From: Escherichia phage vB_EcoM-S1P5QW
Sequence record: OL956808.1
Strand: one strand, 5' to 3'
Length of the DNA stretch: 64,000 bases
Shown: positions 2,893-26,424 of the stretch, piece after piece
Position numbering within the stretch: position 1 is the stretch's first letter
How the letters are laid out: each line of letters starts with the position of its first letter
Position numbers and translations under genes: made by a program
Notes under the pieces: model-generated
Databases searched by the model: none
What the model saw: the letters and a program-made list of their open reading frames with translations, nothing else
What the model was told of the DNA's origin: nothing

Positions 2893-4591
2893 TTGTGTAT
2901 TGACCAGATGAAATAGAACTCATAGATGCCATTTTTTCTGTCCAATCACCACCAACGTCCCAATCAACTGTCCCAGCAACTTTCCAAGAAAGATTTCCAT
3001 TTACTGTATTAGTCTGATTTCCTTCAACTAAAGTGGTAGCATCTCCTTTAACTGTAATGTCAGCATTACCTTCAACTACAATAGTAACATTACCTTTAAC
3101 TAGGATAGTTCCATTACCTTCAACCGTCTTAGTTTCATCGCCACGTACAAATATTGTATTGCTTCCATCTATTTGGTGGAGACGATTATCCATGTTGTAA
3201 TAAATTTCTGACCCACCGACGTTAGTCTTTTTATCGCCAGCTACCAAAAAATTACCATCAGCATTTGTTATATCATACAAATTATCAACAGTTTTTCTTG
3301 TTTTTCTTCCTGACGGTGATACTTCCTCATATGTTCCAGTCGGATGAACTAATCTGTATCGTTCTTGTCCCGGGGTATCGTCAAATTCCTGAATATGACC
3401 GCTTTCAGTTTCCATTGTGTGAACATACGGGTATTCACCTTTATATGAAGAAACAGGTTCTTTAAATAAAATTCTCGAATCATTCGGAATAGGAGGGTCA
3501 GCTGGATCAGAAGACTTTGCTACAGCAGCAGCCATTGCTGACAAAGACCTAGCCGGTGTTTTCACTTCAATACCGTATGATTCCAAATTACCGGTAAGAA
3601 TAATCATGGTAACACGGGATGCACGGCCTTTTGTTTGTTGATACCACAATGAATCACGACCGGCTTTATATGCTTTTTCCCAATCTCCAGCTAACATAGC
3701 AGTTAACATTGTGTTAAATTTAGCTACACCGCCAACACCCATCTGAAATGCCATATTTTCTAACGCCATTTGACGAGAACGATTAACTGCTTGCCAAACT
3801 GGGCCAACTTTAGAATGTGATTTAATGTCACGTTGCATATCAGCCAAATCACGTTCAAATAAAGCTACCGCTTCTTCCATTGTAATAGAACCTGGATTTC
3901 CGGTAATTTCACGACCAACTTGTTTTGATAAAACTTTATTAATTTGAGTCATATCACGAACTGGCTGCTTCATGATAAGATGACCAATACCAATTGTCGG
4001 ATATCCTTCAGTATCCCAATAAACCTTTAGTCTTAATCCTTCATCACGGCGAAGCATTTCAGCCATTGACATATTTGGATTATCATCAGTTGGAATTTCT
4101 GATAGCGGTCTATCATCGGGATTTATCGCAGTATCTAGATTGCTATCTTGGATAATATTAGAAGACGAATCATATCCTACTTCTCCGCCTTGGTTTAATA
4201 CGTTAGTATCATTTCCTAGACGTCTAGGATACTGTCCAGTCGGGTCAGAAAATCCTTCAAGTCTATTCGGTTTTTCGCGAACTATTCCACCATACGTACC
4301 AAGGACAATTCCGTTAGTTTTCCATTTGTCTAAAAAATGACCATAAACTCTAGTTCCTTCTACTGGACCAGTAACGGAGCCTCCAATTCCAGACATTGCT
4401 GCAGAAGTTATAGGTTGAATAACTGACATCCATGGTAATTTATCAGTTGGAATACCCATTACGTCGCCTTGCGCTCTTTGAGGTGGATGCAGACCAACTA
4501 CACGAACACGAACACGACCTAATTTTAATGGGTCCATTCTATCTTCAACAACACCAACAAACCAATTAAGGTTATTACTTATCATTTCCAT
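2864..4591 (-). CDS. 5: baseplate central spike protein with tail lysozyme domain gp5
   Basis: 575 aa; internal T4-lysozyme-like domain (LRLKVYWDTEGYPTIGIGHL) and C-terminal VxGxxxxxx beta-helix repeats. Confidence 0.95.
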   Translation of the reverse strand: MEMISNNLNWFVGVVEDRMDPLKLGRVRVRVVGLHPPQRAQGDVMGIPTDKLPWMSVIQPITSAAMSGIGGSVTGPVEGTRVYGHFLDKWKTNGIVLGTYGGIVREKPNRLEGFSDPTGQYPRRLGNDTNVLNQGGEVGYDSSSNIIQDSNLDTAINPDDRPLSEIPTDDNPNMSMAEMLRRDEGLRLKVYWDTEGYPTIGIGHLIMKQPVRDMTQINKVLSKQVGREITGNPGSITMEEAVALFERDLADMQRDIKSHSKVGPVWQAVNRSRQMALENMAFQMGVGGVAKFNTMLTAMLAGDWEKAYKAGRDSLWYQQTKGRASRVTMIILTGNLESYGIEVKTPARSLSAMAAAVAKSSDPADPPIPNDSRILFKEPVSSYKGEYPYVHTMETESGHIQEFDDTPGQERYRLVHPTGTYEEVSPSGRKTRKTVDNLYDITNADGNFLVAGDKKTNVGGSEIYYNMDNRLHQIDGSNTIFVRGDETKTVEGNGTILVKGNVTIVVEGNADITVKGDATTLVEGNQTNTVNGNLSWKVAGTVDWDVGGDWTEKMASMSSISSGQYTIDGSRIDIG

Positions 4592-5165
4592 AAGATTTCT
4601 CCATTATACGTATAAGGTCGTTCATAAATGAATTGATGTCTGATTTTGCTATTATTTTTATTTGACGAAGTTTTTCATTTTCAAGAACAGCAGCTTCATA
4701 CGTATCGACCGCGGCAAGTGCTCCTTCATATTGAGGATATTTTCTAGCTTTATCACCTTTGTCATACCAAACATATGGATTATCATCATATGATACTAAA
4801 TTATAAAATTTTTCACCATTTTCATTCACATGATATACTATTTGGTCTCCACCTACGTTTTTGTATTTTTGTATAGATGCTTGATAAGCAGCTTCTTGCG
4901 AAGTAATCCATCCATAATACGGATCATAATTATCATTACACATCAATAAAACCCAATACAACTGCGGATTTCCATATATAGCATTTGCTAATTCTTCCGG
5001 GCGTGGTGAACCTTTAATATAATAAGTACGTAAGCGGTATCCCGCAAGAGCACGTTTGAAATAGTCTTTATAGTTTCTAAAAATATCTGTCATAGGAATA
5101 GTCGGCGCGTTTTTATTCACCGTTTTGGCCGCATATTCAATCGGATCAAAAAATGTAAAGAGCAT
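4575..5165 (-). CDS. 53: baseplate wedge subunit gp53
   Basis: 196 aa, immediately upstream of gp5 on same strand; divergent from gene 4. Confidence 0.8.
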   Translation of the reverse strand: MLFTFFDPIEYAAKTVNKNAPTIPMTDIFRNYKDYFKRALAGYRLRTYYIKGSPRPEELANAIYGNPQLYWVLLMCNDNYDPYYGWITSQEAAYQASIQKYKNVGGDQIVYHVNENGEKFYNLVSYDDNPYVWYDKGDKARKYPQYEGALAAVDTYEAAVLENEKLRQIKIIAKSDINSFMNDLIRIMEKSYGNDK

Positions 5166-5178
5166 GGGCCCTCCTGTT

Positions 5179-5202
5179 TATAAATATATTATCTATTTAT
5201 AA
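5179..5202. promoter_or_regulatory. divergent late promoters (TATAAATA on + at 5179-5186 for gene 4; on - at 5195-5202 for genes 53/5)
   Basis: exact T4 late-promoter -10 octamer TATAAATA read on both strands in the 47-bp divergent intergenic region. Confidence 0.6.
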
Positions 5203-20604: not shown

Positions 20605-20938
20605 AATTTTGGTTTTATGTATAGGATTAATTTCATTTTCTGCGTTAGCAGATACATCATATACTGAAATTAGAGAGTATGTAAACCGTACTGCAGCGGA
20701 TTATTGCGGGAAAAATAAAGCATGCCAAGCTGAATTTGCGCAGAAATTAATATATGCATATAAAGACGGAGAAAGAGATAAATCAAGCAGATACAAAAAC
20801 GATACATTGTTAAAACGATATGCTAAAAAGTGGAATACCTTAGAATGTTCAGTTGCGGAGGAAAAAGATAAAGCCGCTTGTCATTCAATGGTTGACCGTT
20901 TGGTAGATTCTTATAATCGAGGATTGAGTACTAGATGA
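20597..20938 (+). CDS. secreted hypothetical protein
   Basis: 113 aa with signal-peptide-like N-terminus MTKILVLCIGLISFSALA and several Cys. Confidence 0.5.
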   Translation: MTKILVLCIGLISFSALADTSYTEIREYVNRTAADYCGKNKACQAEFAQKLIYAYKDGERDKSSRYKNDTLLKRYAKKWNTLECSVAEEKDKAACHSMVDRLVDSYNRGLSTR

Positions 20939-21414
20939 TTGTAAAATATATCAAGGGCGATATTGTCGCCCTCTTTCTTGAAGGTAATATTATTGCGCAT
21001 GGGTGTAACTGTTTTCATACAATGGGCAGTGGTGTAGCTGGTCAATTAGCAAGAGCCTATCCCAAAATTTTAGAAATAGATAAAACCACTACTGAGTACG
21101 GTTCTCGTGATAAATTAGGCGATATGTCTATTGTTTTTAAACATAAACCTAATGGTTTTGGCATATGTTATAACTTGTATACGCAATACGAACCAGGTCC
21201 TAATCTTGATTATGGTGCTTTAGTAAACTGCATGATAGAATTAAATCTACAGGCAGAAACCCTTTTGTTTAAACCAGTAATTTACATTCCACGCATAGGT
21301 TGTGGTATTGCTGGCGGCGATTGGGATAAGGTTTCTAAATTAATCGACATGTTTACTCCTGATATTGATTTAATAGTGGTGGATTATGAAAGTACATTAC
21401 CCACATCCGTTTGA
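20935..21414 (+). CDS. macrodomain protein (ADP-ribose binding/hydrolase-like)
   Basis: 159 aa; motifs HGCNC...MGSGVAGQLA and IGCGIAGG resemble macro-domain N-x(6)-GGGV and G-x-G signatures. Confidence 0.6.
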   Translation: MIVKYIKGDIVALFLEGNIIAHGCNCFHTMGSGVAGQLARAYPKILEIDKTTTEYGSRDKLGDMSIVFKHKPNGFGICYNLYTQYEPGPNLDYGALVNCMIELNLQAETLLFKPVIYIPRIGCGIAGGDWDKVSKLIDMFTPDIDLIVVDYESTLPTSV

Positions 21415-21598
21415 TCCTAAAAACAAAGTGGAAATTATTCGTCAATGGGAACGCATTTGCCGTACTAAATGTCCAATTAATAGTCCACATGATGTAGATA
21501 AAGACTACATTGGAACATTCGTTGAATATACCTTTATTGATAAGAAAGGTCGTAAACAACATGTAGAAGAATATTGCTTAAAGGTTACATGGTTATGA
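21386..21598 (+). CDS. hypothetical protein
   Basis: 70-aa ORF overlapping the macrodomain gene end. Confidence 0.4.
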   Translation: MKVHYPHPFDPKNKVEIIRQWERICRTKCPINSPHDVDKDYIGTFVEYTFIDKKGRKQHVEEYCLKVTWL

Positions 21599-21801
21599 GC
21601 CAAACTAGTATTCTTAAAAATGCCCACTGTGAAAAGTGTAAGTGGCCTGTTGTTTTTGCTTTATGTAATGATGAAATGGCTTGTGATTTCGATTATTGGT
21701 GCTATTGTTCTAATAAAGGATGCATCAATCATAAAGGTGAAGGATTTTATTCGGGATTTTATCCTTATCCTGATTTCGTTAAAGAAGGTAAACCAAAATG
21801 A
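21574..21801 (+). CDS. Cys-rich small protein (putative zinc-binding)
   Basis: 75 aa with CEKCKW...CNDEMACDFDYWCYCSNKGC. Confidence 0.45.
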   Translation: MLKGYMVMSQTSILKNAHCEKCKWPVVFALCNDEMACDFDYWCYCSNKGCINHKGEGFYSGFYPYPDFVKEGKPK

Positions 21802-21974
21802 ATGATGATTTAAAATATCAATTATTACGTGAACTTGATGTTTTGATTGAACTTTCTGCGCAAAAAGGATTTATAATTGGATCAGGTCAAAAAGACCCCA
21901 ACGGTCATTCAATCGTAGCGGTTATGAATCAGAAACGAGTCATTTTAAAACTTTTGGGGATTGACATACTGTGA
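21798..21974 (+). CDS. hypothetical small protein
   Basis: 58-aa ORF below the track cutoff; ATGA overlap upstream and GTGA overlap downstream. Confidence 0.4.
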   Translation: MNDDLKYQLLRELDVLIELSAQKGFIIGSGQKDPNGHSIVAVMNQKRVILKLLGIDIL

Positions 21975-22156
21975 GTCTAAGCAAAGAACAAAAAGATAAA
22001 TTGTTTGAGCTTATCCATGAACTTCTAGATGAGCATATAGAAGCAAACACCTTTTATGATGAATACGGCCCGCTATCTCCAGAACAGCAGGAAGAATTTG
22101 CTGATCGGTTTGATAAGAAAGAAAATGAATTAATAGCTTATGTGAATACGCTTTAA
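21971..22156 (+). CDS. small helical protein (paralog family)
   Basis: 61 aa, GTG start; resembles the ~60-aa family at 23975-24888. Confidence 0.45.
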   Translation: MSLSKEQKDKLFELIHELLDEHIEANTFYDEYGPLSPEQQEEFADRFDKKENELIAYVNTL

Positions 22157-22165
22157 GAAGGTGAT

Positions 22166-22747
22166 ATGGCGAGTTTAATTTTTACTTATGCAGCAATGAA
22201 TGCTGGAAAATCTGCTTCTCTTTTGACTGCTGCACATAATTATAAAGAACGTGGAATGAGTGTATTAGTTCTTAAGCCTGCTATTGATACTCGCGATTCT
22301 GTCTGTGAAGTTGTTTCTCGCATTGGAATTAAACAGGAAGCGAATATTATTACAGATGATATGGATATTTTCGAGTTCTATAAATGGGCTGAAGCACAAA
22401 AAGATATTCATTGCGTATTTGTAGATGAAGCTCAGTTTTTAAAAACTGAACAGGTGCATCAATTAAGTCGAATTGTTGATACATATAATGTTCCTGTTAT
22501 GGCTTATGGATTAAGGACTGATTTCGCTGGAAAATTGTTTGAAGGTTCTAAAGAACTTTTAGCGATTGCAGATAAACTTATTGAACTAAAGGCAGTTTGT
22601 CATTGTGGTAAAAAAGCGATTATGACAGCTCGATTAATGGAAGATGGAACACCAGTTAAAGAAGGTAATCAAATCTGTATTGGTGATGAAATTTATGTTT
22701 CTTTGTGCAGAAAACATTGGAATGAATTAACTAAAAAGCTCGGTTAG
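22166..22747 (+). CDS. tk: thymidine kinase
   Basis: 193 aa; P-loop NAGKSASL and C-terminal Cys cluster typical of type II thymidine kinases; RBS AAGGTGA. Confidence 0.9.
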   Translation: MASLIFTYAAMNAGKSASLLTAAHNYKERGMSVLVLKPAIDTRDSVCEVVSRIGIKQEANIITDDMDIFEFYKWAEAQKDIHCVFVDEAQFLKTEQVHQLSRIVDTYNVPVMAYGLRTDFAGKLFEGSKELLAIADKLIELKAVCHCGKKAIMTARLMEDGTPVKEGNQICIGDEIYVSLCRKHWNELTKKLG

Positions 22748-22756
22748 TGCAAAAGT

Positions 22757-22764
22757 TATAAATA
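22757..22764 (+). promoter_or_regulatory. late promoter TATAAATA
   Basis: exact octamer upstream of the 22790 ORF. Confidence 0.45.
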
Positions 22765-22789
22765 GGTTTATCTAACTAAAGGGGTATAT

Positions 22790-23002
22790 ATGCTACAATT
22801 AACTGAAAAGCAACTTCGCAATCTTACTGTTCTTCAATTAGATGAAATTCGTAGGGAAGTTGGAAATATCATTTCAGCTTTGCGTCGAGAAGTATCACTC
22901 AACCAATCTCCGGCAGACTATACTAGATTGCGAAATTTTGAAAAATACCTTGATAAAGTTAAGGCCGTGCATCGGCATAAAGTAAATACAGGACAAAAAT
23001 GA
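22790..23002 (+). CDS. hypothetical protein (rI-adjacent)
   Basis: 70 aa, RBS AAAGGGG. Confidence 0.5.
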
Positions 23003-23014
23003 TAGGAGGCCTTT

Positions 23015-23308
23015 ATGGCCTTAAAAGCAACGGCACTTTTTGCCATGCTAGGATTGTCATTTGTTTTATCTCCATCGATTGAAGCGAATGTCGATCCTCA
23101 TTTTGATAAATTTATGGAATCTGGTATTAGGCACGTTTATACACTTTTTGAAAATAAAAGCGTAGAATCGTCTGAACAATTCTATAGTTTTATGAGAACG
23201 ACCTATAAAAATGACCCGTGCTCTTCTGATTTTGAATGTATAGAACGAGGCGCGGAGATGGCACAATCATACGCTAGAATTATGAACATTAAATTGGAGA
23301 CTGAATGA
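23015..23308 (+). CDS. rI: lysis inhibition regulator RI (periplasmic antiholin)
   Basis: 97 aa with signal-anchor N-terminus MALKATALFAMLGLSFVLSPSIEA; matches recalled T4 RI; RBS GGAGG. Confidence 0.85.
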   Translation: MALKATALFAMLGLSFVLSPSIEANVDPHFDKFMESGIRHVYTLFENKSVESSEQFYSFMRTTYKNDPCSSDFECIERGAEMAQSYARIMNIKLETE

Positions 23309-23691
23309 AATTCAGCGACTTTTCACAAAGTGGAAAACCTTCAAAGGCAGATGAATACTTAGGTTTATTAATGGCTGCACAAGCTTATTTTCATTCTGCA
23401 CATTTTGAAACTAAAAGTTATGCTAGACACAAAGCATACGATTTTATTTTCTCCGAGTTGCCAGATTTGATTGATAAATTTGGTGAGCAATATTTGGGGT
23501 ATTCTGGTAGAAAATACACGCCTTCAATTCCAGATGCCAGTAAACTTCCTACCGACACAATTAAAATGATTGATCGCATACTAGACCAATCTAACAGCAT
23601 TTATAAAGAAATGCCTCCAGCCATTCAAAGCACGATAGATGATATTACTGGAATGTTTTACCAGAGTAAGTATCTTCTTTCCCTCGAATAA
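23305..23691 (+). CDS. hypothetical protein (rI.1 position)
   Basis: 128 aa, ATGA overlap with rI. Confidence 0.55.
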
Positions 23692-23695
23692 CATT

Positions 23696-23719
23696 AGTCT
23701 CCTTCGGGAGACTTTTTTC
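23696..23719 (+). terminator. intrinsic terminator hairpin plus T-run
   Basis: AGTCTCCTTCGGGAGACT followed by TTTTTT. Confidence 0.7.
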
Positions 23720-23728
23720 ATTTTACCG

Positions 23729-23759
23729 GTTTACTTTCCGTTTGAGCTGTGATACTATA
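23729..23759 (+). promoter_or_regulatory. early promoter cassette
   Basis: GGTTTAC...GTGATACTATACAACTATC, same -10 module as other cassettes. Confidence 0.55.
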
Positions 23760-23786
23760 CAACTATCGGATAAAGAGGAGAACATC

Positions 23787-23975
23787 ATGAAAATTGAAGC
23801 ACTCAATCAAGAAGGAAATATCTACGTCATCATTAATGGTGATTTTTTCGTCGACATGGATGAAGTTACTAGTGAAGAACTTGTAGAATTTCTTAAGAAA
23901 CGTTATAATATGTGTGATGAAGTTGCAACTCACATGGCATGTGCAATATTCTCTCTTTCATATGTGGTGGAATAA
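23787..23975 (+). CDS. small protein
   Basis: 62 aa from ATG 23787 after RBS AAAGAGGAGAA. Confidence 0.5.
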
Positions 23976-24178
23976 TGATTAGTATCGAACAAGCGGATAA
24001 AATTAAGGAATTGGTAGCTTTAATTCGTAAAGCAGATGAGGAACTTAGTGACTTTGCTTGGTTTTCGTCAGGCATTGCAAATAAAGGTATTGATGAACTT
24101 GAAGCTAAAGTTGATAATGCTTTAGAAGCGTTAGATATGTTTCTTGATGAAATTATCGATCATAATACGAGAGTTTAA
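23975..24178 (+). CDS. small helical protein (paralog family)
   Basis: 67 aa; start overlaps upstream stop. Confidence 0.5.
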   Translation: MISIEQADKIKELVALIRKADEELSDFAWFSSGIANKGIDELEAKVDNALEALDMFLDEIIDHNTRV

Positions 24179-24180
24179 GT

Positions 24181-24375
24181 ATGCTAACACGCGAACAGTT
24201 TGAAAAAATCATTAAATTAGCACGTGATATTGAAATAGATTCATACCAATTAGCAGTTGAGCATTGTGAAGGATATTCATACGACGGTATAGAAGCAGCT
24301 AAAAAGGATTTGGATAAATCTAAAGCTAAGTTAGTTCAATATCTTGAAATGATTAGGTGGAATAATGAAAACTGA
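24181..24375 (+). CDS. small helical protein (paralog family)
   Basis: 64 aa. Confidence 0.5.
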   Translation: MLTREQFEKIIKLARDIEIDSYQLAVEHCEGYSYDGIEAAKKDLDKSKAKLVQYLEMIRWNNEN

Positions 24376-24538
24376 AAAGCAGATGTTTTTAATGAAACTA
24401 ATTGAAGAATATGCTAATGCAGTTTCTGACTATGAATGTTCTTCTCGGGAAAGAGGTACAGCTTTCGCCAAAGAAGAAATGAAAATCATGGTTGATGCTC
24501 ACACAAAGCTTCAGAATTTTATTGAAAACGTCATTTAA
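24365..24538 (+). CDS. small helical protein (paralog family)
   Basis: 57-aa ORF missed by the 60-aa cutoff; MKTEKQMFLMKLIEEYANAV resembles neighbours. Confidence 0.4.
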   Translation: MKTEKQMFLMKLIEEYANAVSDYECSSRERGTAFAKEEMKIMVDAHTKLQNFIENVI

Positions 24539-24540
24539 TG

Positions 24541-24570
24541 GTTTACAAGTTGGCAAGGTTATGGTATAGT
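24541..24570 (+). promoter_or_regulatory. early promoter (GTTTAC ... TGGTATAGT)
   Basis: read in sequence directly after upstream stop. Confidence 0.5.
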
Positions 24571-24702
24571 AATCTTGTCAACTTCCAAGGAGAAGAGAAT
24601 GAAAGTTTTGTTTGTTGTGTATGTGATGATTCAATATAATTACCCAATGTTTACTTATAATTTGGTAAACAACATTATTGATATGATTCAGAGGAGTATG
24701 TA

Positions 24703-24888
24703 ATGACAAGTGAGCAGGCTTTTAAATTAAGAGAATTAATTGAGACGTATAGTAAAGCTGTTCATACATCAACAATTATTGATGAATCAGCTTTCTCCGG
24801 ACATGCTAACAAGATTAAATACAAAACTCTTATGGAAGAAGCTAAAGTAAATCTTGATTCTTATATTGAAACTTTAATTGGTAAATAA
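24703..24888 (+). CDS. small helical protein (paralog family)
   Basis: 61 aa, RBS AGAGGAG. Confidence 0.5.
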   Translation: MTSEQAFKLRELIETYSKAVHTSTIIDESAFSGHANKIKYKTLMEEAKVNLDSYIETLIGK

Positions 24889-24889
24889 T

Positions 24890-25432
24890 ATGAAAGCTGT
24901 AATTGAAACAACTGATTTGTTCGGTGACCTAGTTATCGAAAAACGCGGTAATGTATACGTTCTGACGCAGGAAGACGATAGTATTACTATTCTTCCTATG
25001 GAACTGGCTGCGATTTTATCTTATGCTCCCTCAGGAGTTACCGGTGTAACTAATATTACAGGTGACCTCCAAGTTCGTTTTTATCGTGGCCTTTACGGCG
25101 GTAATATTGAAACTGAATTTATGTGTCTTTCTATCAACAATTGGGCAACATTCGTTGCCAAGGTGAAAGAATTCTTAGAATCTGAAACAGCCGAAACACC
25201 CGAAAAGGCTAAACTTCAATGGGCTAAAGATCGCGGTGCTAACATTATTAATCCAGTAGCTGCAAACTATACTACGACTTTGGATGTCAAGACTTCTTAT
25301 GAAGATGGCGATGTCGTACTTGTTCGCCAAAATGATGATTCTCGAGCACATATTGTCACATTTACCAAAGACGAAGCTATTGCGCTAAAGACTTATCTTG
25401 ATTCTGTCATTCCAACTATGATTTCAAAGTGA
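24890..25432 (+). CDS. hypothetical protein (paralog A)
   Basis: 180 aa from ATG 24890; shares N- and C-terminal motifs with the 25439 ORF. Confidence 0.55.
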   Translation: MKAVIETTDLFGDLVIEKRGNVYVLTQEDDSITILPMELAAILSYAPSGVTGVTNITGDLQVRFYRGLYGGNIETEFMCLSINNWATFVAKVKEFLESETAETPEKAKLQWAKDRGANIINPVAANYTTTLDVKTSYEDGDVVLVRQNDDSRAHIVTFTKDEAIALKTYLDSVIPTMISK

Positions 25433-25438
25433 GGAAAT

Positions 25439-25960
25439 ATGTTTATTTCAAGTGGAAGTGGTTTAATTCGTGTTGAATTTAAAAATGACATCTTTCTTAT
25501 TCAAGGAGATGATATTATTAAAATGAGTTATGACGAAATCAAGAAAATTTGTCATGCTCTTGAAAGTCATGGAAAAGTGAACGCTGTTATTGATATTGGC
25601 GATTTATGGGTGACGCTTTATGAAGTATCCGAAGGATTTAACATTGAAGATGAAAATAACATTTTAGCTATTGATAAAAGAACTGATTTGCTTGATATAT
25701 TAAAAGCCTATGAGCAGTCAAATGGCGGAAGAAAAGCTGCATTGATTTATCAAAAACCGCATTCATGTGGAACTGCTTCAATCATTTCAAATATTGAAGG
25801 CGAAGTTGATACTTATATGTGTGTTTTAAAAGCTGGTGGTGACCGTCATCCGGATTTTATTTCTATTCGTCAAAGCAATGGAGAAATTTCATTATCAAAA
25901 TCAGAAGCTGAAGCTATGATTAAGTATTTAACAACCGTTACGCCTTCAATGAAAGGATAA
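25439..25960 (+). CDS. hypothetical protein (paralog B)
   Basis: 173 aa; C-terminus EAMIKYLTTVTPSM parallels EAIALKTYLDSVIPTM of upstream gene. Confidence 0.55.
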   Translation: MFISSGSGLIRVEFKNDIFLIQGDDIIKMSYDEIKKICHALESHGKVNAVIDIGDLWVTLYEVSEGFNIEDENNILAIDKRTDLLDILKAYEQSNGGRKAALIYQKPHSCGTASIISNIEGEVDTYMCVLKAGGDRHPDFISIRQSNGEISLSKSEAEAMIKYLTTVTPSMKG

Positions 25961-25962
25961 TT

Positions 25963-26424
25963 ATGATTATTAATGAAAACTCTTGGCATTATAAATTATT
26001 CAAATTGTTTAACGACGAATGGCAACGACCTAAGACACTATGCGCATATTTTTGGTCTATTGCCATTCCTACATTTTTCGTTTCTATTTTTGGATGTGCT
26101 ATACTCGTAGGGCTAACAATTATTTGTGCAGAAAGCCTACAACGTTGGCTTATTTTCGGTAGTTTATGGACTCTTCTTCCATCGGCATTTATACTTGCAC
26201 TTTTGGTTGTTTTACTTATTATCGGTTCATTTGTTATTCCTGCACATTTGCGTGAAAAATATAAAGATTATAAATGGAAAAAGGATTATGCTTTACGCGT
26301 AGAAAATATTGATAGGGCGTATAAAGGTTTACCTCCTATTCAACCCAAGAAATCGATTATCGTTGAATTTTTAAAAGCTCGTAAAGCTAAAGTATGTCCT
26401 GTTATTGAATATAAGGCTGAATGA
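25963..26424 (+). CDS. membrane protein
   Basis: 153 aa with two long hydrophobic segments. Confidence 0.55.
   Translation: MIINENSWHYKLFKLFNDEWQRPKTLCAYFWSIAIPTFFVSIFGCAILVGLTIICAESLQRWLIFGSLWTLLPSAFILALLVVLLIIGSFVIPAHLREKYKDYKWKKDYALRVENIDRAYKGLPPIQPKKSIIVEFLKARKAKVCPVIEYKAE

Follow-up and report, generated by a model that had tools for sequence, protein, structure and literature searches.

In a stretch of 64,000 nucleotides (nt) of Escherichia phage vB_EcoM-S1P5QW (sequence record OL956808.1), referred to here at its full length as the window, five small open reading frames (ORFs) lie around the genes tk and rI. The question they raise is whether they are copies of one gene and, if so, what their products do for the phage. 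A sequence-only reading of the window had described them as duplicated helical proteins of 57–67 amino acids (aa) and had named them as host-takeover or anti-defense candidates. All five ORFs were found on the + strand where that reading had placed them, and the gene calls in the record of Shigella phage Sf22 were identical for every one of them. Based on comparison of their sequences, the five, here called paralogs A to E, are diverged paralogs of one small family, DUF7438 (Pfam PF24219), which is already catalogued and present in hundreds of sequenced T-even phages. The five are as follows.

21971–22156, + strand: paralog A, GTG start, 61 aa; PF24219 at E = 3.2e-19 over model positions 1–57 of 57; phrog_653; placed by BLASTP against T4 proteins
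23975–24178, + strand: paralog B, 67 aa; PF24219 at E = 2.5e-15; phrog_653; ortholog of T4 MobD.4
24181–24375, + strand: paralog C, 64 aa; PF24219 at E = 1.5e-17; phrog_653; ortholog of T4 MobD.3
24365–24538, + strand: paralog D, 57 aa; PF24219 at E = 3.7e-15; phrog_2758; full-length form of T4 MobD.2a
24703–24888, + strand: paralog E, 61 aa; PF24219 at E = 1.4e-15; phrog_4859; no counterpart in T4

Pairwise BLASTP among the five gave weak similarities (19–34% identity, best E 4e-4 in a five-sequence database), so it was fair to ask whether the likeness was one of chance or composition. The profile-based comparisons indicated that it was not. All five proteins matched PF24219 with 56.5–69.5 bits against a gathering cut-off of 25 (E 3.7e-15 to 3.2e-19), and the matches covered the whole model, positions 1–57 of 57 (1–56 in D). 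When hidden Markov models (HMMs) were built from four of the proteins and searched against the 938 six-frame ORFs of the window, the omitted protein ranked first among the ~934 ORFs not used in training, with E values from 0.036 to 3e-7. No more than 1 in 2000 composition-preserving shuffles of each omitted protein reached the real score. In addition, hhalign comparison of orthologue-group alignments, built from database homologs, placed all five in one connected set of co-linear, near full-length matches (P values of 3.4e-6 for mobD.4 with mobD.3, 1.2e-5 for mobD.4 with E, 2.2e-5 for mobD.2a with E, 1.4e-4 for mobD.4 with mobD.2a, and 4.5e-4 for tk.2 with mobD.3). The sequence-only reading had offered alignment and HMM comparison as its check and had allowed that the similarity might be due to composition only; Pfam, the leave-one-out HMMs, the shuffles and hhalign together upheld the paralogy and spoke against composition alone.

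The family HMM search recovered no further member in the window, using models from the five proteins and then from 29 seeds plus the recovered ORFs against the same 938 six-frame ORFs. Three neighboring candidates, rI.1 (22790–23002), the 58-aa ORF at 21798–21974 and mobD.5, were rejected by this search. The length and the two-helix architecture of PF24219 agree with those of the five window proteins, which are members of it. The Pfam family also includes T4 Tk.1, Tk.2, MobD.2a, MobD.3 and MobD.4, while E is absent from T4 and MobD.2a is broken in the T4 reference. PHROGs divides this one homologous family into three, with A, B and C in phrog_653, D in phrog_2758 and E in phrog_4859, although cross-matches link all three; phrog_653 and phrog_2758 are labeled ‘unknown function’.

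Structure prediction, which the sequence-only reading had also proposed, gave a helical fold for both proteins modeled. AlphaFold2 was run on B and E as single chains, with family alignments of 23 and 28 sequences as input. The model of B has helices at residues 4–30 and 39–66 (mean predicted local distance difference test, pLDDT, 90.6) and that of E has helices at 3–28 and 34–60 (mean pLDDT 93.3), and each forms one antiparallel two-helix hairpin. The proteins thus have the features of the family, being single-domain and 57–67 aa long, with two long helices in the B and E models. The pattern that had first been noticed in the sequences, an N-terminal EQ segment, a central patch and a C-terminal helix, was confirmed, the center being a loop rich in glycine, aromatic and acidic residues. 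Across the family, helix 1 begins with a conserved [ST]xEQxxK[IL]xxL and helix 2 ends with a conserved LxxF/Y[LI]xxL, and in the hairpin these two segments adjoin at the open end. The [ST]xE at the helix start resembles an N-cap, so its conservation is probably structural. The glycine, aromatic and acidic patch falls in the loop and the helix ends that adjoin it.

Searches with the sequences and the models gave few leads beyond the family itself. A PDB sequence search with the family profile had no match at E ≤ 0.1, and nothing below E 0.7. Foldseek against the PDB returned generic hairpins only, all at E ≥ 0.5 (Fap1, DUF683, Rop variants, HR1 domains, BAR segments and Aqs1). Against BFVD the best matches were other uncharacterized proteins, mostly of T4-like phages, none of them at E ≤ 0.001. 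An NCBIfam scan gave a sub-threshold match to SASP Tlp for B only (17 bits against a cut-off of 73), and no catalytic domain was matched in Pfam, NCBIfam or the PDB. No fold, sequence or literature match from these searches (PDB, BFVD, Pfam and NCBIfam) suggested a function.

Four of the five proteins could be assigned to T4 genes. A is the ortholog of T4 Tk.2, at 52% identity, and not of Tk.1, as judged by sequence; it adjoins tk on the upstream side. Tk.1 is a further member of the family by its PF24219 match, and tk.1 is absent from the window phage. B is 76% identical to T4 MobD.4 and C is 97% identical to T4 MobD.3. D, whose start overlaps the end of C by 11 nt, is 89% identical to MobD.2a over the 38 aa annotated for that protein in T4. 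In the T4 reference (NC_000866, 2997–3178, minus strand) MobD.2a is frameshifted, with 38 aa annotated and the C-terminal half in another frame. An intact copy of 57 aa is present in the window and in the sampled relatives RB3, wV7, CrRp10, F1 and PYps11T, and the T4D genome used for HIDEN-SEQ (preprint 10.1101/2025.11.20.689424) has it at 174 nt. E sits between mobD.2 and mobD.1, immediately upstream of a y05I-like MobD.1 gene. The net charges of A to E are −10, −9, −3, −2 and −1, respectively.

The genes around rI that encode B to E are arranged in two clusters, each headed by a putative early promoter, and the relevant signals, all predicted from the DNA, are listed here.

23696–23713, + strand: intrinsic-terminator-like stem-loop and T run after rI.-1, separating the rI unit from the mobD.5 operon
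23729–23758, + strand: T4-early-type promoter, GTTTAC-17-TGaTACTAT, heading mobD.5-B-C-D; near-identical in T4
24542–24570, + strand: T4-early-type promoter, TTTACA-17-TGgTATAGT, heading mobD.2-E; 10/12 matches, extended −10; 64/67 positions identical to T4

Within the first cluster the genes mobD.5, B, C and D overlap or abut one another, the ATG of B overlapping the stop codon of mobD.5 (TAATG). Paralog A lacks its own promoter, and its GTG start shares bases with the stop codon of the upstream ORF (GTGA); it is predicted to be translationally coupled within the gene chain that runs from vs.1 to tk. The earlier statement that several of the genes are preceded by early promoters was therefore right as to the presence of early-type promoters, of which there are two, but each serves a cluster and A has none. 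The T4 mobD.5 promoter is active in infected cells, as determined by primer extension; the RNA sequenced in that work was taken at 3 min post-infection (PMC1702504). The description of duplicated small helical proteins encoded in early units held, given the paralogy, the B and E models, and the conservation here of a promoter that is active in T4.

The family proved to be narrowly distributed. In a word-indexed search, 5.8 billion sequences yielded 122 clusters, almost all of them with PF24219, and the named clusters among them carried names from T4-like phages or from E. coli or Shigella records. HMMER, run exhaustively over 1.84 billion cluster representatives, gave 21 matches; one of them, a 786-aa protein (P0121), was set aside as a coiled-coil repeat false positive. 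From these sequence searches DUF7438 appears to be nearly confined to T-even-like phages of enterobacteria. Mosigvirus, Dhakavirus, Gaprivervirus, Jiaodavirus and Tegunavirus each have a member directly upstream of tk, and in Tequatrovirus and Gaprivervirus the family has expanded into arrays; in Gaprivervirus TH54, E-like, MobD.4-like and MobD.3-like genes follow one another contiguously. PF24219 was also matched over the whole model, well above the gathering score, by T4 Tk.1 and Tk.2 and by the proteins encoded next to tk in Klebsiella phage JD18 and Yersinia phage TG1, and the tk regions sampled from Serratia phage PS2 and one Krischvirus yielded no member.

Copy number and alleles differed between otherwise near-identical phages. 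Among the sampled Tequatrovirus genomes, the window phage, T4, RB3, CrRp10, F1 and PYps11T carry five copies each and wV7 carries six, including both Tk.1 and E; the idea that E and Tk.1 are mutual replacements was rejected on this ground. By record, E was found in 192, the T4-type Tk.1 in 191, and the A-type allele of Tk.2 in 445. Outside the T-even phages, a divergent MobD.4-like member (P0125) was found on a 142-kb contig of 42% GC (Logan SRR30535852_4990; L012, positions 5001–5195, and also L013, positions 3538–3732). The closest cultured relatives of this contig are Phapecoctavirus (Stephanstirmvirinae), the gene lies amid a long run of small unannotated genes, and among the cultured phages of the collection none has this allele at ≥60% identity. 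Its presence in a Stephanstirmvirinae-like contig indicates transfer outside Straboviridae, and that the gene is portable between unrelated coliphages.

The genes also appear to be maintained by selection. Inter-genus ratios of nonsynonymous to synonymous substitution rates (dN/dS) were 0.07–0.39 wherever dS was unsaturated, well below 1, which indicates real genes under purifying selection. Between the window phage and T4, nt 1–70 and 151–204 of mobD.4 are identical and all differences lie in nt 71–150 (window 24045–24124), which encode the tip of the hairpin and include a 21-nt in-frame (7-residue) indel; the pairwise dN/dS is ~1. The mobD.4 alleles in the databases are combinatorial variants of this tip segment, one of them with a GIK duplication. 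Such a pattern could reflect diversifying selection or patch recombination. Column entropy was higher at the center than at the ends in MobD.4 (0.84 versus 0.48 and 0.11; n = 48 cluster representatives) and in Tk.2 (0.94 versus 0.31 and 0.56; n = 27 cluster representatives).

Several database proteins that appeared to place a DUF7438 domain in a longer product were rejected as domain architectures. P0053, which had looked like a domain fusion, is a read-through of D into MobD.2. P0087 (79 aa, PF24219 and PF01206), from a contig of 603 bp, joins an N-terminal stretch of unrelated sequence to a shortened D-like part. In P0106 and P0112, which come from T4-derived and Shigella records, the first ~35–40 residues of MobD.3 are fused to the last ~30 of NrdC.11. 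These two imply natural or laboratory deletions from mobD.2a through most of nrdC.11, in certain stocks or relatives of T4, and no real domain architecture, and the loss of the intervening genes again indicates dispensability.

Dispensability has also been addressed gene by gene in T4. According to Extended Data Table 6 of the HIDEN-SEQ preprint (10.1101/2025.11.20.689424), tk.1, tk.2, mobD.2a, mobD.3 and mobD.4 are non-essential, with 91–100% of their TA sites hit, and each of the T4 orthologs can thus be dispensed with on E. coli K-12. Screens with RexAB, RnlAB, CBASS, DarTG1/2, minimal medium and several uropathogenic isolates are covered in the main text of the same preprint. It assigns roles to accessory genes nearby, with tk.4 encoding AdfM (anti-DarTG2) and nrdC.1, further along in T4, being anti-Septu, and it reports that vs matters in minimal medium. 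Elsewhere, a literature search found no main-text mention of mobD.3, mobD.4, mobD.2a or DUF7438, and none pairing ‘phage T4’ with ‘tk.2’. A time-resolved T4 omics paper names none of these genes in its main text, and a paper on the LSm fold in Tevenvirinae leaves mobD, tk.2 and helical hairpins unmentioned.

The surrounding DNA places the window phage in Tequatrovirus (T4-like). Positions 21700–25000 are 99.5% identical to Shigella phage Sf22, and 589 phage records match this region, nearly all of them Tequatrovirus. What is the + strand in the window is the minus strand in T4, and the gene order is vs.1, vs, tk.4, tk.3, ..., tk, rI.1, rI, rI.-1, mobD.5, mobD.4, mobD.3, mobD.2a, mobD.2, ..., mobD.1, ..., nrdC.11. 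The products of vs.1, vs, tk, rI.1, rI, rI.-1, mobD.5 and nrdC.11 are 97–100% identical to those of T4, whereas identity is low in Tk.2 (52%), Tk.4 (58%), MobD.4 (76%) and MobD.1 (47%). The conserved neighbors and these diverged genes together indicate a mosaic region with local hot spots.

Some further features of this neighborhood can be recorded. The Tk.4 macrodomain gene (20935–21414) encodes the product 58% identical to T4 Tk.4, and the genes that flank it are at 93–100%. Between tk.3 and the tk.2 ortholog lie a PF23895 zinc-binding protein gene (21574–21801; 75 aa, with the start taken from the longest ORF) and the 58-aa ORF at 21798–21974; neither had a match among the T4 proteins compared from the vs.1–nrdC.11 region. 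Directly downstream of E is a second tandem pair of paralogs, two y05I-like genes (24890–25432 and 25439–25960), both with T4_y05I_N and T4_y05I_C domains. Their MobD.1-like products, annotated ‘putative transcription factor’, share 47% and 25% identity with T4 MobD.1. T4 has mobD, a gene for an HNH homing endonuclease, after mobD.1; T4 MobD had no match among the window ORFs compared, and the interval from mobD.1 to nrdC.11 in the window holds the second y05I-like copy and a 153-aa ORF (25963–26424), which gave weak sub-threshold matches to membrane-protein families only.

Product names attached to the family in public records (RefSeq NC_042039, NC_000866, NC_025419 and others) required separate scrutiny, as two of them would imply a function. 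E is labeled ‘helicase loader’ in RefSeq and through phrog_4859, a name that was unsupported: there is no backing for it in Pfam, NCBIfam or the PDB, and a Pfam scan of E at E ≤ 1 gave DUF7438 and a weak, unrelated, sub-threshold match to Toast-rack_PspC-Cterm only. The same label occurs on Tk.1/Tk.2 in one RefSeq record. Depending on the record, MobD.4, MobD.5 or MobD.1 is called ‘molybdopterin-guanine dinucleotide biosynthesis protein MobD’, and no match to a molybdenum-cofactor family was found in Pfam, NCBIfam or the PDB. The label equals the T4 gene names mobD.x, whose numbering starts from mobD, a homing-endonuclease gene, and it was most likely carried over from the name. In addition, rI.-1 is labeled ‘starvation-inducible transcriptional regulator’, and matches DUF5856 only.

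That the five genes are real DUF7438 paralogs, carried in early units, held under purifying selection, with hairpin models for B and E, five to six copies per genome and dispensability in T4, is in our judgment almost certain. As to their role, we favor, tentatively and with the doubts outweighing the support, the view that they are conditionally useful accessory protein-binding modules directed at strain-variable host components, with the tip adding specificity. This reading draws on the conserved base and variable tip in two paralogs, on the copy-number variation, on the combination of early expression and dispensability, and on the portability of the gene. A ~60-residue hairpin that lacks catalytic motifs and bears a broad hydrophobic stripe is also unlikely to work alone. 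We propose that the proteins would be small soluble protein-binding modules, not enzymes, with a common scaffold in which the N-terminal end of helix 1 (the [ST]xEQ N-cap and the K[IL]xxL core) packs on the C-terminal end of helix 2 (LxxF/Y[LI]xxL). The hydrophobic stripe, which runs along both helices, would allow one hairpin to pair with another, from either the same paralog or a different one, and by analogy with Rop-type hairpins the product is probably a four-helix bundle. The half of the molecule near the loop, with its glycine, aromatic and acidic residues and its hypervariability in MobD.4 and Tk.2, would then set the binding target of each paralog. The likeliest targets may be host proteins present in some strains and not in others, and the family would consist of host-modulating, possibly anti-defense, factors made in the first minutes of infection. 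Taken as a whole, the observations together with the proposed mechanism, we regard this explanation as falling a little short of an even call.

A number of observations weigh against this reading. The hairpin fold is generic, and the structural matches are weak or to uncharacterized phage proteins; dimerization and binding are read from size, predicted fold and hydrophobic pattern only. The range of net charge, from −10 to −1, means that the five need not share one type of target. The tip pattern of MobD.4 could also be produced by a short recombination patch, and in column entropy E, MobD.3 and MobD.2a were not more variable at the center, so that the pattern holds in two of five subfamilies only. 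The main text of the HIDEN-SEQ preprint names none of the T4 orthologs, and one of its comparison tables gives an adjusted P of 1 for all of them (10.1101/2025.11.20.689424). Paralog redundancy, with 5–6 copies per genome, is a plausible reason for null results in single-gene transposon screens. A bolder extension is that DUF7438 would be a ‘mini-binder’ scaffold, in which a conserved hairpin base carries an exchangeable, aromatic-rich tip, and of which T-even phages would keep five or six versions and recombine the tip cassettes to neutralize different strain-specific host proteins, immune sensors or effectors; redundancy would then account for the silence of single-gene screens. This extension we consider unlikely.

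One rival explanation is that the paralogs are dedicated anti-defense inhibitors, each blocking a different immune protein, with the variable tip the mark of an arms race. Early expression, dispensability and small size would all suit such inhibitors, as would the tip hypervariability and exchange of alleles in MobD.4 and Tk.2, the variation in copy number between near-identical phages, the spread of a gene to another coliphage lineage and the counter-defense genes that the preprint places in the neighborhood (tk.4/AdfM and, further along in T4, nrdC.1). The preprint's main text on the RexAB, RnlAB, CBASS, DarTG1/2 and uropathogenic-isolate screens, however, leaves the T4 orthologs unnamed, with the adjusted P of 1 in the one table. 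There is, moreover, no structural or sequence match to a known anti-defense protein, and three subfamilies are without tip hypervariability. We consider this explanation rather doubtful in its strict form. A known small phage inhibitor that can be set beside the family is Aqs1 of Pseudomonas phage DMS3 (PDB 6v7w), a small helical inhibitor of host proteins, which like DUF7438 is early, dispensable and ~60–70 residues long; it was a weak shape match (rank 40, template modeling (TM) score 0.65), a generic fold resemblance with no sequence relationship. Based on size and fold, the most suggestive analogue is Rop, the repressor of primer of ColE1. Its chain is a helical hairpin of 63 residues, and two chains make up a homodimeric four-helix bundle, which binds RNA kissing complexes. 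Rop variants were among the best shape matches, with equal length and the same antiparallel two-helix hairpin (TM score 0.85, root-mean-square deviation ~1.0–1.3 over 57 residues), and the paralogs might accordingly be RNA-binding hairpin dimers that, early in infection, influence how phage or host RNAs pair or how stable they are. That score range, however, holds many unrelated hairpins, the hairpin being the simplest helical fold and one that recurs by convergence. The Foldseek E value was ~1 at 16% identity, hhalign of the family profile against Rop gave a probability of 0.1%, and the Pfam scan at E ≤ 1 contained no Rop family, leaving no sequence or profile relationship. Three of the DUF7438 paralogs are, in addition, strongly acidic, counted as net −9 to −10 with few basic residues. 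A Rop-like role is thus very improbable in our view.

The position of the genes suggests another possibility, that they modulate neighboring phage products; thymidine kinase or the Tk.4 macrodomain, for example, would be the target of Tk.2 and Tk.1, and the y05I-like MobD.1 that of E. A DUF7438 gene adjoins tk in six Tevenvirinae genera, with an annotated macrodomain (‘phosphatase’) gene one gene further upstream in PhAPEC2, VR5, JD18 and TG1, and an E-like gene abuts a y05I-like gene both in the window and in a divergent metagenomic T4-like contig. On that contig (Logan SRR27558799_35231; L011, positions 152–863) an RlaP/NrdC.11-like nucleotidyltransferase gene follows two genes on, and the adjacency predates the genus Tequatrovirus. 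Gene order is, however, broadly conserved among T-even phages, so adjacency carries little weight; the member on the Stephanstirmvirinae-like contig has none of these neighbors, and the sampled Gaprivervirus has MobD.4-like and MobD.3-like genes, not a y05I-like one, after its E-like gene. We regard this possibility as improbable. The explanation that asks least of the genes is that they have no function of their own, and are neutral filler, spacers for translational coupling or a by-product of AT-rich, helix-prone composition. Individual dispensability, as given in the preprint's table, and the weak pairwise BLAST similarity would agree with it. It is already largely refuted by the dN/dS, shuffle and hhalign results, as the inter-genus dN/dS is well below 1, shuffled sequences almost never reach the real scores, and the Pfam and profile–profile matches are full-length; the genes are also kept in several genera and hundreds of genomes. 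We give it hardly any credence, and return to accessory protein-binding modules as the reading that we prefer, at the tentative strength stated above.

Together, these findings confirm a catalogued domain of unknown function in the window and do not describe a new kind of system. What is added here is the assignment of A to tk.2, the unification of three PHROGs, the hairpin models, and a narrow taxonomic range with one transfer out of Straboviridae. To these can be added the tip-restricted variation in MobD.4 and Tk.2, and the flagging of two wrong product names that are spreading in annotations of T4-like phages. Even in T4, the virulent phage that has been studied best, many early genes are still without a function, and DUF7438 is part of that gap. 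The genes tk.1, tk.2, mobD.2a, mobD.3, mobD.4 and E can now be treated as one hairpin family, whose differences in copy number and variation at the tip give an experimental handle on it.

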